Shown here one piece after another: positions 21,019 through 33,439 of a stretch of 64,000 nucleotides of DNA. The notes under the pieces are model-generated. The model searched no databases, was not told the origin of the DNA, and saw only the letters and a list, made by a program, of their open reading frames with translations. This stretch comes from Octopus vulgaris (lineage: Eukaryota). A program made the translations under genes and the position numbers. Numbering within the stretch: position 1 is the stretch's first letter; every line of letters begins with the position of its first letter. The stretch covers positions 83,142,001 to 83,206,000 of the forward strand of contig OX597822.1 in NCBI GenBank assembly GCA_951406725.2, read 5' to 3'.

Positions 21019-21654
21019 ATCCTTAAATCCTTAAATCCTTAAAAATGTTTTAGCCCGAAGGCCGCAGCCATGCTGGGGCACCACCGCTGAATGAGCTACA
21101 CTAATTTGTTAATCCACCTCTGATACGTGGCACTTGATCAACAAGGGAGTCCGATGCTGCTGCCCGCATCCGCGTCTCCTGTCGTGAGGTAGGTTCATCT
21201 GGGACTCCCAACAAGAAGAGATCCAGTTTAGTTTTAAAGAAACCCACATCCACACCATGTAAGTCTCTCGGGCATTTAGGGAGGATGTTAAAGAGCTGTG
21301 GTCCTCTGAAACCCAAGTTGTTGCAGTATCTGGACCTGTATTTTGATGGTGATGTTGGAATCCTTGGCACCACGCAGCGGCGCCCCGTTCCGCGGTTGGG
21401 GTAACTTTGAATGCCAAAGTTTGGGACAAGACTCTCCAGGATTTTCCAGATGTATATCACCGCATATCTCTCCCGCCTCCGCTCTAGGGGGAAAAGGTTT
21501 AATACCTTCAGTCTTTCCCAGTAGCTGATATTTTGCATTGAGACGATTTTCTTTGCGTAGCTTCTTTGAATTGCTTCGAGTTCTGCTGTTAGTTTTATAT
21601 TGTGTGGTGACCACAGTTGGGAGCAGTAGTCCAAGCGGCTGAGGACGAGGACGA
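21019..21654 (-). mobile_element. 5'-truncated CR1-group LINE (RT C-terminus + 3' tail)
   Basis: [15 protein letters not shown]...LEAIQR...[20 protein letters not shown]...IYIWKIL typical of a CR1-type ORF2 end. 3' stem-loop followed by three TTAAGGAT-like tail repeats. Confidence 0.85.
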
Positions 21655-21680
21655 TATATATATATATGTATATATATATG

Positions 21681-21749
<69 letters not shown>

Positions 21750-22009
21750 CACAACCACATTTATTGTATGTATATATATATATGTATATATATGTATATA
21801 TTTATATATGTATATATATATGTATGTATAGATATGTATATGTATATATATATATGTATGTATATATATATGTATGTATATATATATATATGTATATATA
21901 TATGTATATATATATTTATATATATATATGTATATATATATGTATATATATATATATAATGTATATATATATGTGTGTATATATATATGTATATACATGT
22001 ATATAAATA

Positions 22010-22046
<37 letters not shown>

Positions 22047-22694
22047 TTTATGTTTTTATGTAACCTTTTCACATTAGCTGTATATTGCATTTACACCATT
22101 TTGAGATTGATTCATTTCATTCATATTGTGAGTTCTCTCTAAAACATATCCTAAAATGTAAAAATAATTCCAATATATCTGCGAAATATTTATAAATACA
22201 ATTGCTTAATAGCTCATATCTCTACGTATATGTTTCAAGTATATTTTTTCAACGTACTTTACAAAATTTCGAGCGATATTGCAATGCTATTTCCACAGCA
22301 AATTAAAAAGTATTTTTGTTCAACATATTTCAGATATATACATAAAACATCTCTTGACTCTAGACCTCCTGACTGGCGAAAACAATACATGGAATTCACA
22401 TCTATATAAAGCTATCTTTTGGAATTACAAAACAGTACGCCTGCAGATAAGCAAGCAATCTACTTCACTGCATGACTTGAATATATTTACTCATCACATC
22501 ACTCTTCATATTAGTTTTATATATATATATCGTGAAGTATATTTGCCACCTAAATGTGTCTGACACATGTGGGACGATGCTACTGTGGTTTATAGTCCCA
22601 GAAAGACATCTCCTCCAACTGGCTAACGGCACACTGTGCCCGATCAGTATTTGCGAAGGGAAATCATCGTTCCCATCTCTAGCCTGACGTGATA

Positions 22695-22740
22695 CACACG
22701 GACCTGGGTTTCTGGGTAGTAAACCCGTCATCAGCGTGTG
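22695..22740 (-). ncRNA. Type-I hammerhead ribozyme with canonical core and GUC site
   Basis: CACACG-CUGAUGA-C[GGGU(UUACU)ACCC]A-GAAA-CCCAGG-UC-CGUGUG; 6-bp stem I. Confidence 0.85.
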
Positions 22741-22754
22741 ACAATCACCGGCTA

Positions 22755-24577
22755 TTTTCTTTATTATAGATACAAGGCCTAAACACAGAGGGGACATACA
22801 TGGACATGCGGGAACAAAAGAACACATAAAAGAATGTAAAATGAATTAAATTACAATGAATATGAGACGATTTTCTTGGTCCCGTTCCGAGACGAAACCG
22901 TGATTTCTTTTTACATTTAAATCAACGTTCTTACAGTCTTTTTTTTCTGTATAGTTCTTTTTAATTTTCTTTTTCTTTTAAACTTTTTAACAGTCTGTTT
23001 TCTTTTTTTTTCTTTTATATAAAACACAAATTGTACTCACTTGCTTTTAAATGTTCATAACGGGTTTCAAATCCTCCAATTCCACCCAACATGTATCGGG
23101 CCTACACTGCAGAGTTCACAAAATCCTTATAAATCACCACAGGCGGCAATTCGTCGTATTGAAACCGTTTCCTTGTAATTTCCATTCTGCTTCCAAATAT
23201 TTCTTTTAATCTTGCTGCTCTTTCGTTCTCCAGTAGCACTGCTTTCATAATACAGTCCTCTCCATTGTCTGCTAATTTCACCCTTATTATGCCTTTCATT
23301 TTTGTTATACGCTTTTCCATCTCTACACTTTTCTCGTTTACGACTAACACTCGTTCATGTTTTCTTTTACGTGGCTTTCTCGGCTGTATTTCTTCACTCG
23401 CTACACCAGTAACAGATGTCTTCATTTCTGTTTGTTGTTCGTTTCCTTGTTTCTTCTGTCTTTCCTTCTCCTTACTCGTTGAAGGCTCTGGCTCTTGAGT
23501 TCGATTCTCCGTTGCTCCCTCATTTTTTCTTTTCTCTTTTTTCTTCTCTTCCGCCTTTCTTTTCTTTTTCGGTGGAGATTCGCTATTTCCTTTCTTCTCT
23601 ACCATTGTAGACTCTGTTTCCTTCTCCGATATCATATTCGCTTCTATCTGACTTCTTTCGTCTACCGCTTCTTGTTCTTGTTTCTGGGGACAGTTTATCT
23701 TCATGTGTCCCCTTACTCCGCATTTAAAGCATATTGGTGGTCTACCCTCCACCATGACTCTCAGTCTGGTCTCATTGGGTAGGACAATTTCTTCTGTCAT
23801 TTTGTGGAGTCAGGCAAGCTGATAAGGACCATTACCTCTAGGCCATACCCTCCACCAATTGACCTCCGCTGTCTTGGACATTTTCAATATTTCCACCTTC
23901 TCCTCTGTGTTGTAGAGGGTGGCTGCCATAAGCCAGTCCTCATTAATTTCGGGTGGCACTCTCCCTATTCTCACTCTGGCTGCCCGTCTGCCCGTCTTCC
24001 ACAGTAAGTAGGTAAGAGTGCCCACTGTGCCGGTTTCAAGGCCACGGAAGAGTACTTTTTTTTACTTCGCTCTCATTAACGAAGCGTAACTCCACTGTGC
24101 CAAACTTTCTCCTCTGTTACAGAAAGTTGTCACTTCCATAACGTCCTTCAAACACCTCTCCATTTCCTCCACGGCTGCCATTTCCATTTTCTGTGTCGCC
24201 ATGTTCAACGTTCGACAGGTTATCATTTTTCTTTCGAAACCCTCTGCCACCTCTGGTGGGTATTAATCCCAAACATTCCTCCTCCCTCCTCAATAGGTTG
24301 TCAAACTTCTTATAATCTACATTTTTCACCTCCAGCTCCTGCACTTGCAGCGGCTCTGCAGTCAGGCTTTTGCCTGTTACCGCAGGACAACTGCCTGTCC
24401 GGGTCTGCTCACTTCCGCTATTCACTGCTTCACCCATAATGGGGAATCCAAACAAAACCTTCAACGACCACAATAAATTACAAATTTAACAATCACAATT
24501 TCAACAATTCAACTATTCAGCCAAACAAAGCAACGGCCCACATGGGGGCGGAATGAAAACACAACCACTTCAGAAGA
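22755..24577 (-). mobile_element. Tx1/L1-like LINE derivative (frameshifted ORF1, ORF2 absent) with 17-bp TSD
   Basis: TSD GTGACAATCACCGGCTA (22738-22754) / GTGACAATCACTAGCTA (24578-24594). ORF1 fragments 24473-23102. 3' end TGTCCCCTCTGTGTTTAGGCCTTGTATCTATAATAAAGAAAA resembles the tails at 60470-60511 and 61284-61325. Confidence 0.75.
23102..24473 (-). pseudogene. Gag-like ORF1 with CCHC zinc knuckle (frameshifted)
   Basis: RVRIGRVPPEI and RLRVMVEGRPPICFKCGVRGHMKINCP (CX2CX4HX4C), followed by a charged K/E-rich tract; split over four ORFs. Confidence 0.75.
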
Positions 24578-24905
24578 GTGACAATCACTAGCTAACGATG
24601 TGAAAGTAAGTCCAAACGCAAAATACTATATGTTTTTTCCAGTGACAAACTGTCGCTGATCTTGAAACAGGAGAAATAAGCAATAATAAATCTCTGAGCG
24701 AGATGTAAACAGTAGCAGCACGACATGGTGAACTATATTTGCCACCTAAATATGGCTGACCCATATGCGACGATGCTACTGTTGTTTATAGCACCAGGAA
24801 GACATCTCCTCCAGCCGGCTATAAACTACAGTACCATCTTCTTCTATGGGTCAGCCACATTTAGGTGGCAAATATACTTAACGATGTCATGCTGTTACTG
24901 TTTAC

Positions 24906-25337
24906 GGATCTTTTCGGTTTGAACGGCAGTTTTTTCTAGCGGTGTCATATGAAATTGTCACCCATAATTATGACCCTAGTATCGATCTATTGCATTTCAA
25001 TCTGTTTTAGGGTTAGGGTTAGTAAGGGTTAGTTAGGGGTGGGGGAAAGGGTATCTTTTTTTCTTCACTAATGTAAATAAACCCAATCTGTTTCTTAAAC
25101 GAGGGACATATTCATACGGCACGGAATGTTTTCACCTTAATAAACGTCATTGATTGGTTGAAATTGCAGAAATTGAAGAAAAAACAACAACAAATATCTT
25201 ACAAACTATAGAATTTTTCCAATAAAGCCAAGAGAAAGAGATGTTTTATAAACACATTCTACTAATATGCGAAGTTTAAAAGTGTTTAGTTACGTGCAAA
25301 TTATTAAAAAAAACTGCCGTTCAAACCGAAAAGATCC
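24906..25337. mobile_element. MITE with ~30-bp TIRs and 8-bp TSD (Merlin-like)
   Basis: TIR GGATCTTTTCGGTTTGAACGGCAGTTTTTT at both ends. TSD CTGTTTAC at 24898-24905 and 25338-25345. 5'-GG termini plus 8-bp TSD fit Merlin. Internal TTAGGG-like repeats at 25007-25040. Confidence 0.85.
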
Positions 25338-27134
25338 CTGTTTACATCTCGCTCAGAGATTTATTATTATTTATATGTATGTAAGTGTGTGTTTGTGAGT
25401 GTGTGCGTGTGTGTGTTTAAAGGGTAGTCGTTGTTATGTGTATCTATAATCTTCTGGGTTCGACTATTATTAGAAAAGAAAGAATTGAATGTGCATGTAG
25501 ACCAAAATATTATATTGTAATGTAACTATTGAAAACTCCAATGCTCTACAATGCCCAAAAGCAAAAACAAAACAAAAACGAAAAGCAAAACAAAGAAAAG
25601 AACATTCCTATCAGCTTCGTAATGAATCCCGTTTTCTCATTTCCTCTCCTTCGTCACCAGAAGAGTTTTCACTTTATTTTCTTTCTAATTCATTTCTTAT
25701 GGTTTACATTACTTCGGGGTAAAAACTTCCGATGTTTGAAGCTAGAGAACAGCTCTGTTGCCTCTTAATATCTCACCACCATCTTCTAATTGAAAGATTT
25801 TTCTGTCATTTGTTTCGATGAGAAATCATTCCAATTAGCTGCTTTGAAATAATGTAAAAAGATATAAGAAAACATGAAAAAATATCAAAAATGGTAAAAT
25901 CTTGTTTTGGGTATTAACTAGAATTCTAATTAAATCTTTGGGCTTCCGCAGGCAAATCCTTTTCATAGCTTGCTGAATCATTCGCTGCATATATTTTTAG
26001 AAATTAATTTATTTGTTGCAAAGAAGAATATAGAGCTGAAACTCGAATTTACTTCATAATGTTTTTGAAATTATATTTGTTATCACCTTGTACATGTGAA
26101 TATATACATATGCGATATATCATATATATCTATACATGTGTGTGCGCGCCCGAGCATATCTGTGTTTGTGTGTATATACGTATGCATATGGTGCAACTTA
26201 AATTTGAATTGCGTAACAAATAACCAGTATTTATAATTCCAGATGTATCTCCGTATATCTGAAAGGAAACCGTGCGATGGATTCGTATTATATTCTTGAT
26301 ATAATTTGGTTGCATTCTATAGCTGGATATGTCACAGAGCTTTAAAAACCAAAACGGGTGAGTTTTATCATCGTACGTCCGTTTCATTCGCAAAGTTAGA
26401 TTATCAGTTATATAAATTATATAACACATTGTAATATCTTCAGAGATGCGTAACTCCTATTCGTAATACAAACTATATAATCCAGTGGTGTTAGCAAGTC
26501 TTCAGAGGTGCATATCTTTCGTCCATAATTTTACGTTTAAAAAATAGGATTAGTGATAATGTTACGATCACTGGCTCACTAAGGACTGCCATTAAGTAGG
26601 TGAAGAATTTAGTTTATATATTTGGCATTTGGTGGCGGAAAACCTTATCGGAGACAAAAAAAGGGAAAATTAGAAAGGAAGATTTTGCGTTGCCAAACGA
26701 CTCTGATGTTTCTAACTAAAGTTTTAACACTTATATTCACTAGGACAATAAGGCGATTGAAATTAGGATATTTAACGTAACTATGTACATTGTCGTAGGC
26801 TTAATGTTATTTCTTAATTAAGTGCCTCCTATGATGTTCCAATCTATGCTAAATCTACAGTAGACATAGTTTACAGATATAATATTAAAAATTCTTAGAA
26901 CGATGCCGAAGAAAGCTCAACATTACGACAGATGAAAGACTGAGTCTATAGCAACCTAGATAAGACCACTTTTCTGAATATAATGGTGTATAATAATGAT
27001 AATTCAACATCTTGGGAATTCAAGACGCTCTTGCTTTCTATTTTATAACATTTGAATTTTATATAAATTAGCTCTATGCTTTACCTCCCGAATACGGATA
27101 CTGCCTTATTTTTGATATCAATACGATTGTATTC

Positions 27135-32692: not shown

Positions 32693-32768
<76 letters not shown>

Positions 32769-32791
32769 TCACTGCCTGGAATCGAACTACA

Positions 32792-32861
32792 GGCATATGG
32801 CGTAGTGGTTAAGAGCGCGAGCTACTAACCCCAAGATTCCGAGTTCGATTCCAGGCAGTGA

Positions 32862-32863
<2 letters not shown>
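32792..32863 (+). promoter_or_regulatory. tRNA-like head with Pol III A and B boxes
   Basis: TGGCGTAGTGG (32798-32808) and GAGTTCGATTC (32841-32851) at tRNA-like spacing; no good acceptor stem. Confidence 0.7.
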
Positions 32864-32923
<60 letters not shown>

Positions 32924-32970
32924 TCGAAAAATACCTTAGGAATGAGAACTCAGGTTCGAAATTTCCCCAA

Positions 32971-33016
32971 GGCACCTGATGAAGGCTGGAGGGTATATCA
33001 GCCGAAAGGTTGTGTT
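32971..33016 (+). ncRNA. Minimal hammerhead ribozyme motif (inverted copy at 27799-27844)
   Basis: GGCAC-CUGAUGA-A-GGCUG(GAGGGUAUAU)CAGCC-GAAA-GG-UU-GUGUU. The other arm reads GAAA-CC-UU, suggesting an ancestral GAAACGUU palindrome. Confidence 0.7.
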
Positions 33017-33439
33017 AACAACAAACAAGATGATGACAAATATCCGTCAAATGTAAATAATGTAAATAATATAGGAATTAGTACTAAATAATATGGGTTT
33101 GTGAATGACGGAAGTTCATGAGCTTGGATCAGCTCTTATTCCATGGAGCAAACTATAGCCTGACTTTTTCTTAGGAATCTTTAATCTCTGAGGAAAAAGA
33201 ACCTTCATTTGAAGGATGGATTGTGCATACGTGAAGGGTTTAAGTGTTTCGTTAAAAAGGCGGTATAGTTTACATGGTCTTGTAATTAAAGATCAAAGAA
33301 GATAGAGGATAAAGGCCAGTGTGTGTGTATGTGTGGATGTGTGAGGTAATTGTGAATGTAATTGGATGGATGTGTAATTACAGCTTAATGGGCGTAAATG
33401 ACGTTAGCCGGTGTGTGTATGTGTGGTATGGAAACAGTG

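Follow-up and report, generated by a model that had tools for sequence, protein, structure and literature searches.

A decayed ORF1-only LINE at a recurrent site beside the hammerhead motif of a retrozyme-type repeat in Octopus vulgaris

Does a LINE found directly beside a hammerhead ribozyme motif owe its position to chance, to movement of the two as a single unit, or to the use of one mobile element as the landing site of another? The question is raised by a 64,000-nucleotide stretch of the Octopus vulgaris genome, here called the window (assembly GCA_951406725.2, contig OX597822.1, positions 83,142,001 to 83,206,000, forward strand), and was addressed by searching the genome (2.8 Gb, 227 contigs). 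A preliminary description of the window had offered two readings: either a Tx1-like family targets retrozymes, or the composite moves as one ribozyme-processed unit. The observation in the window, an ORF1-only element between 17-bp duplications just 5′ of a hammerhead, is confirmed, and the arrangement recurs across the genome. We consider it highly probable that this element is a decayed ORF1-only LINE at a 17-bp target-site duplication, 20 nt upstream of a retrozyme-type hammerhead core, likely placed there in trans by a related Tx1-like LINE. One mobile element thus likely uses another as its landing site.

The insert runs from position 24577 to 22755 on the minus strand (1,823 bp). It is full length and decayed, is of the L1/Tx1-like non-autonomous kind, and carries a 3′ hairpin and a AATAAAGAAAA end with no poly(A) tail. 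The 17-bp duplications that flank it, an upstream copy at 24578–24594 and a downstream copy at 22738–22754, agree at 15 of 17 positions, and both mismatches fall at one CpG, which has decayed in the upstream copy. ORF1 is broken by a frameshift and in-frame stops; its C-terminal open piece (23102–23809, minus strand) includes a CCHC zinc knuckle (approximately 23734–23684; PF00098, E = 7e-5, above the cut-off), and other pieces lie at 23810–24061, 24062–24262 and 24117–24485 on the same strand. There is no room for ORF2. The 1.8-kb element with a zinc-knuckle ORF1 between 17-bp duplications, as first described, is therefore present, and its closest other copies in the genome are 81–87% identical to it.

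Host repeat, likewise on the minus strand, lies on both sides of the insert. The portion upstream of the insertion site occupies 24595–24821; downstream lie a type I hammerhead motif (22695–22740), the host body 3′ of the hammerhead, which includes the 3′ arm of an extended stem I (22626–22694), and a terminal 97 bp (22529–22625) that restart the unit and are 87% identical to 24725–24821, giving a partial tandem of about 1.3 units. A (TA)n microsatellite (22517–22530) adjoins the 3′ end of the host. Subtracting the insert and one duplication leaves 227 + 17 + 112 = 356 bp, which matches the unit of about 356 bp, present about 1.3 times in tandem, that excision had been said to restore. Absent from the preliminary description is an inverted, truncated copy of the host 3′ part on the plus strand (24822–25374, made up of 24822–24905 and approximately 25338–25374, with 86% and 95% identity), which ends about 46 nt further than the forward copy. 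By its structure this inverted arm with tail is of the Penelope type. A MITE at 24906–25337, with terminal inverted repeats of about 33 bp, an 8-bp duplication and many copies in the fetched loci, is a later entrant into the inverted arm. This MITE is an abundant 432-bp element with GG...CC termini, which may be Merlin-like.

The hammerhead was called from its anatomy and from covariation, independently of Rfam, which yielded no family at the gathering score in the window and weak snoRNA noise alone at E values up to 10. Stem I is formed by 22740–22735 and 22700–22695, and between these strands lie CUGAUGA (22734–22728), helix II (22727–22713), GAAA (22712–22709) and a short helix III with its loop (22708–22703). 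Cleavage is predicted between 22701 and 22700, 54 nt past the 3′ end of the insert. The duplicated sequence, as had been noted, overlaps the 6-bp core stem I at its first 3 nt. It constitutes the 5′ arm of the extended stem I, so that the hammerhead downstream of the insert remains complete. The statement that the hammerhead is intact holds for the core and fails for the helix III palindrome, which reads CCCAGG in the window, mutated at a CpG, where the commonest form in the family is CCCGGG; the predicted dimer helix is correspondingly −4.8 kcal/mol for the window versus −14.9 kcal/mol for the commonest form. The site was also considered as the base of a hairpin, an idea that we rejected since the paired arm extends well beyond the duplication.

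Comparison of 67 distinct motifs, a few of which are probable false hits, reveals a 3/8 pair that is C-G in 50 and U-A in 11, where the search pattern admitted only C/U and G/A at these positions. Helix II varies across the set with its pairing kept, and loop III is self-complementary in 49 of the 67, with several different palindromes. This covariation and self-complementarity match animal type I hammerheads, whose helix III is short and palindromic and which are described as active as dimers and as cleaving poorly alone (PMC4209133). A stricter descriptor recovered only 2 of 30 loci that were selected by the LINE tail, compared with 17 of 30 by eye, because decayed copies and copies with a C·A closing pair fail it.

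The positions of other family members decide whether the window is a singular accident. A search with the 3′ end of the insert yielded 30 loci with 33 distinct family 3′ ends, and the target motif (at least 11 of 15 matches) follows 31 of these; the remaining two score 10/15, and a random control reached the threshold at 52 of 20,000 window positions (0.26%). Beyond the motif lies the hammerhead or else a further element, beginning at its 5′ end, so that arrays are formed: host sequence comes directly next at 15 of the 33 ends by a script filter, and most others run into another element. Such piled-up elements stand head to tail with a single duplication between neighbours, as in an array (L047) composed of host, three elements and host with a duplication at each joint. 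A search with the 5′ head gave 26 matches, from which 13 were fetched. All three complete 5′ ends show host and duplication at the same base, and the remaining ten, which diverge near the 5′ end, belong to relatives that have different flanks.

A 17-nt tail pattern occurs 159 times, versus 3 for its control. In 30 loci carrying it, inspected by eye, the window’s motif comes next in 15, and elsewhere different recurring sequences lead into hammerhead cores (L167, L171, L179, L185 and L186, also by eye). A one-off insertion of a LINE fragment into an abundant repeat might be suggested by the 3,021 candidate host copies and by the age of the window copy; its probability is negligible, however: 31 of the 33 3′ ends and all three complete 5′ ends use the same base, which refutes it. 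The flanks of other LINE copies are thus non-random, which supports the proposal that a Tx1-like family targets retrozymes, with the label Tx1 taken from architecture. Three relatives of the window family (L295, L302, L304) have heads about 100 nt after a polypurine tract and TG start, which suggests insertion into the LTRs of LTR retrotransposons.

Most copies of the host lack any such insert. From the 3,021 candidates of the hammerhead-part search, 40 were scored and 30 loci were cut out. Counted by eye, with two duplicate rows dropped, these provide 33 distinct host copies, of which 24 are empty (a single motif in continuous host), five are occupied (the window, L085, L087, L090 and L110) and four are without upstream host. 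The empty monomer that the excision model presupposes also exists in uninterrupted form, with a period of exactly 356 bp at L100. These copies show that the host was there before the LINEs, with candidate copies numbering in the thousands and most of them empty.

With its 356-bp period, type I hammerhead and lack of an ORF, the host unit is of the kind and size (150–450 bp) of a retrozyme unit. It resembles animal non-LTR retrozymes and the pseudo-LTR hammerheads of Penelope-like elements (PLEs) in this tandem unit without ORF and in its type I fold with a 6-bp helix I, 4-bp helix II and short palindromic helix III (PMC7229834, PMC4209133). Unlike retrozymes, most hosts of the window’s subfamily have one hammerhead per arm and are monomers by the two-hammerhead criterion of a recent preprint (bioRxiv 10.64898/2026.07.22.740005). 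The window host has one hammerhead, several host loci have two, in inverted arms, and a related host at L122 is a true array of 360–366 bp, unlike the window’s subfamily.

How the host itself moves is suggested by its ends. Most of its 3′ ends lie at one of two points separated by 46 nt, a microsatellite adjoins 21 of 30 of them against a background of 13%, and inverted 5′ arms are common. Microsatellite-abutting ends and inverted 5′ arms are described for PLEs (PMC8557442), and animal retrozymes, with which the host has PLE-like integration marks in common, have been argued to be non-autonomous PLE derivatives (bioRxiv 10.64898/2026.07.22.740005). The host is therefore probably a non-autonomous element moved by Penelope-like machinery, a mobiliser that we infer from these marks. 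No host was found attached to a PLE ORF in 11 PLE stretches, eight of which are flanks of 800 bp, perhaps too short to include the terminus; none of these eight short GIY-YIG flanks, drawn from the best 150 of 6,136 candidates scored, matches the host, and L192 and L193 likewise show no match. The PLE beside the host in L139 and L194 was considered as the host’s own and rejected as a separate insertion behind a microsatellite. L192 (G000:C16:20836100–20839799) belongs to a young PLE family with a 781-aa RT and GIY-YIG frame, many near-identical copies and a tandem-repeat 3′ region. The reverse nesting is seen at L049 (7546–7839), where a piece of host repeat with an inverted arm lies inside an ORF1-only element.

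The second reading of the preliminary description would make host and ORF1 cargo one composite, excised by the hammerhead and integrated in Penelope-like fashion, with the duplication an old junction copied along. Three features have this appearance. L037 is bounded by inverted host 3′ ends, with one arm consisting of LINE tail and host joined directly to a truncated LINE; at L189 (TA)n tracts flank an inverted host end that is fused to 150 nt of LINE tail; and upstream host is absent from many truncated copies, being found at the 5′ end in 3 of about 20 examined 5′-truncated copies (L022, L046, L143). Since most truncated copies have neither host nor duplication at the 5′ end, they require target deletion, later rearrangement or hitchhiking, and target deletions of 20–25 nt occur at L022 and L143.

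Against a composite stand 13 young host-inserted copies. Distances between their LINEs are 0.019 within the larger group and 0.019 between groups, whereas their hosts differ by 0.047 and 0.036 within and by 0.134 between subfamilies, with a Spearman correlation of 0.04 between LINE and host distances; five 3′-UTR columns do separate the LINE copies by host subfamily. Host sequence and a duplication of about 20 bp are present at seven of nine tested 5′ ends (two of the stretches held no 5′ end), and at L139, L140 and L152 locus-specific variants occur in both copies of the duplication. A LINE family of 1.9% divergence thus occupies two host subfamilies that differ by 13.4%, seven times its own divergence. 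This shows that the insertions were independent and went into already diverged hosts, so that the composite is not the main mobile unit. Several different families also occupy different sites of the same host, L143 has an occupied forward arm beside an empty inverted arm, and hosts are mostly empty. We therefore regard movement as one ribozyme-processed unit as very improbable and, as the main mode, unsupported. Occasional hitchhiking of LINE with host, for which L037 and L189 are candidates, seems to us to have somewhat less than an even chance.

Independent insertion at a fixed site requires an enzymatic source, which the window family does not itself encode. None of the 30 tail loci has ORF2 directly upstream of the tail, and they therefore form a set of ORF1-only families, whose full-length copies are 1.6–1.8 kb long, lie between duplications and are multicopy. 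Their ORF1 proteins are 23–54% identical between subfamilies and about 30% identical to ORF1 of the sampled ORF2-coding families. As a gauge of purifying selection on ORF1, pN between the ORF1-only subfamilies is 0.29–0.53 versus a pS of 0.50–0.81, values to be read with saturated synonymous sites and a protein-guided alignment that biases pN down.

The genome does contain many intact ORF2 frames of 1,134–1,166 aa. One of these (L129) has an intact 1,146-aa ORF2 with APE, RT and zf-RVT domains and lies in the same host superfamily as the window insert; both L129 and L130 sit in subfamilies of the window’s host. Of the 30 copies closest to the L129 C-terminus, 13 carry an AATAAAG end and terminate in the host, 6 nt upstream of the window’s site; one (L153) ends in a related host without AATAAAG, and the rest end in other repeats or have no tail. 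ORF2 remnants are found at the window family’s own site (L191 and the second element of L003) and 7 nt upstream of it (L087, L090 and L110), so that ORF2-containing versions occur at the same site or 6–7 nt upstream. Elements at L122–L125 lie in a 362-bp repeat with a U3-A8 hammerhead variant and have a 17-bp duplication. The window family and the ORF2-coding families have in common a 3′ hairpin with AATAAAG end as well as the site, and the CCHC knuckle of ORF1 is present in the window insert and among the ORF2-coding relatives. In most families examined a hairpin is predicted around AATAAAG with differing stem sequences, L126 being an exception in which it is weak or missing. The searches, the 30 tail loci included, gave no intact ORF2 element with the window family’s exact tail, so we infer an autonomous partner. 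Overall, ORF1-only and ORF2-coding (APE-RT-zinc finger) families are shown to recur at fixed sites approximately 17–35 nt 5′ of predicted hammerhead cores in several divergent host subfamilies.

Among solved structures, ORF2 matches human L1 ORF2 best (E = 4e-64), with R2 (E = 4e-25) behind it, which places the family in the L1/Tx1 group only. Membership of the Tx1 clade is suggested by architecture, namely the APE-RT-zinc finger ORF2 of L129, the CCHC ORF1, and the target preference with duplication. The best named ORF2 match, at 60%, is from Argonauta. A DIRS or LTR identity was rejected, as the relatives have APE-RT but lack integrase and recombinase. In a tree built from C-terminal ORF2 pieces, the basal branches of one group consist of hammerhead-flanked copies, and non-hammerhead targets arise inside a young subgroup; the node joining all hammerhead-targeting copies has a support of 0.65 and is based on partial sequences. 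A single ORF2-family copy (L159) is positioned 47 nt upstream of a terminal hammerhead that belongs to a PLE family encoding RT and GIY-YIG, a position that may be chance. Among metagenome relatives (80 loci fetched, 25 checked), no hammerhead was found within 1.2 kb downstream in the 19 loci that were long enough, which are mostly 24–33% identical and too distant to test conservation.

We propose that a related Tx1-like LINE supplied its sequence-specific endonuclease and its reverse transcriptase in trans to the ORF1-only element. Staggered nicks 17–20 bp apart, combined with target-primed reverse transcription, would generate the duplication, and the host repeat may serve as a multicopy safe haven for LINEs.

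The hammerhead downstream of the window insert would cut read-through RNA 54 nt past the insert end. It is thus conceivable that these site-specific LINEs also depend on the ribozyme: read-through RNA would be cut about 54–60 nt past the LINE end to give a defined template that carries the target, the upstream monomer would also cut in arrays, and a ribozyme-adjacent position would be selected. Such dependence would suit an insertion that is always in the sense of the ribozyme and leaves the downstream motif complete, a site 17–35 nt 5′ of the core across hosts with strongly differing target sequences, the lack of a poly(A) tail, and the basal position of hammerhead-flanked copies in one ORF2 group. 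However, sisters of L129 within a few percent in protein sequence use unrelated repeats with no hammerhead within 400 nt, a (TC)n-targeting family has the same non-poly(A) end, and inner array members have no adjacent ribozyme. In addition, hammerheads with a short helix III need a dimer and cleave poorly alone (PMC4209133), and the window palindrome is broken. We judge ribozyme dependence of LINE insertion to be unsupported and improbable; the ribozyme is probably a landmark of the target rather than a required processing step. Contigs of four runs, none on record as RNA, are assembled sequences that cannot show ends, strand or level; in three runs their loose ends correspond to the empty host site, and one contig extends across the LINE–host junction by no more than 30 letters, observations that carry no evidential weight.

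Site-specific LINEs of the Tx1 clade are known to target other transposons, microsatellites and small RNA genes. Examples are Xenopus Tx1L in the piggyBac element Tx1D, crocodilian Tx1-Mar in Mariner-N4_AMi, Tx1-8_Crp and Tx1-4_AMi in LTR elements, and Kibi and Koshi in (TC)n and (TTC)n (PMC4494074). The octopus families resemble these in their APE-RT-zinc finger ORF2, zinc-knuckle ORF1 and fixed site in another mobile element, in tandem insertions that sandwich one duplication, and in a non-autonomous partner with a common target. As with Kibi and Koshi, the same genome has a (TC)n-targeting relative, in which 11 of 11 copies end in (TC)n. Unlike the cited systems, the target is a hammerhead-bearing retrozyme-type repeat, the genome is that of an invertebrate, and the partner codes for ORF1 where theirs is a SINE. 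An ORF1-only LINE derivative recalls HAL1 (half-L1), from which the present families differ in being sequence-specific, in belonging to a Tx1-like rather than the mammalian L1 lineage, in having no poly(A) tail, and in comprising several ORF1-only lineages with saturated synonymous sites (PMC5753468). R2 in 28S rDNA is similarly a LINE that inserts at a specific site of a multicopy target and has a ribozyme next to it. R2 carries its own 5′ ribozyme, whereas the ribozyme here is a hammerhead that forms part of the target and is situated 3′ of the element. Co-transcription of R2 with its 28S rDNA target is cited in PMC4494074.

A literature search among freely accessible papers found no Tx1 element described as targeting a hammerhead or retrozyme, in keeping with the preliminary description’s belief that no such LINE is described; a Repbase entry could already record a hammerhead-repeat target. 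The available text of the retrozyme preprint (bioRxiv 10.64898/2026.07.22.740005) contains no occurrence of Tx1.

Ribozyme-bearing retrozyme repeats thereby present a new class of target, used by site-specific LINEs of a known kind. The locus shows a three-tier parasitism, in which an ORF1-only element exploits a LINE and the LINE exploits a repeat that is probably mobilised by Penelope-like machinery. An old Tx1-like lineage and its ORF1-only satellites may have tracked diversifying Penelope/retrozyme hammerhead repeats, always on the 5′ arm of stem I and with the host ribozyme trimming read-through RNA, perhaps from cephalopods to vertebrates, a scenario that we consider speculative and unlikely. 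The many near-identical intact ORF2 copies, whose close relatives (about 80–99% identity) use different targets, are natural material for mapping changes in APE endonuclease specificity, which bear on tools for site-specific gene insertion. The system also permits a direct test of whether a neighbour’s hammerhead can process LINE RNA.

Several neighbouring families and features were recorded in passing. Copies of the (TC)n-targeting ORF2 family (L111–L121) are 96–99% identical, and their target resembles that of Kibi. A young sister family, mostly on contig C27 (L142, L145–L150, L155, L158 and L160), occupies a repeat that has a CCAAT-like box and terminates in a splice-donor-like sequence; this repeat could be the promoter region of a clustered gene family. 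The 3′ flanks of L126, L128 and L151 represent other sister families in promoter-like repeats with no hammerhead within 400 nt. Elsewhere in the window, positions 32760–33070 look like another short repeat family, in which a tRNA-like head and an (AAT)n tract accompany a minimal hammerhead-like motif unrelated to the first (core near 32977, plus strand), and 21101–21760 (minus strand) hold the C-terminal remnant of another LINE, with about 180 readable aa, cut by the (TA)n tract. Head-to-tail arrays of five and nine ORF2-coding copies, at G000:C5:29183282–29204892 and C9:59208501–59251235, respectively, have a spacing of about 5.28 kb and several open frames of 1,148 aa.
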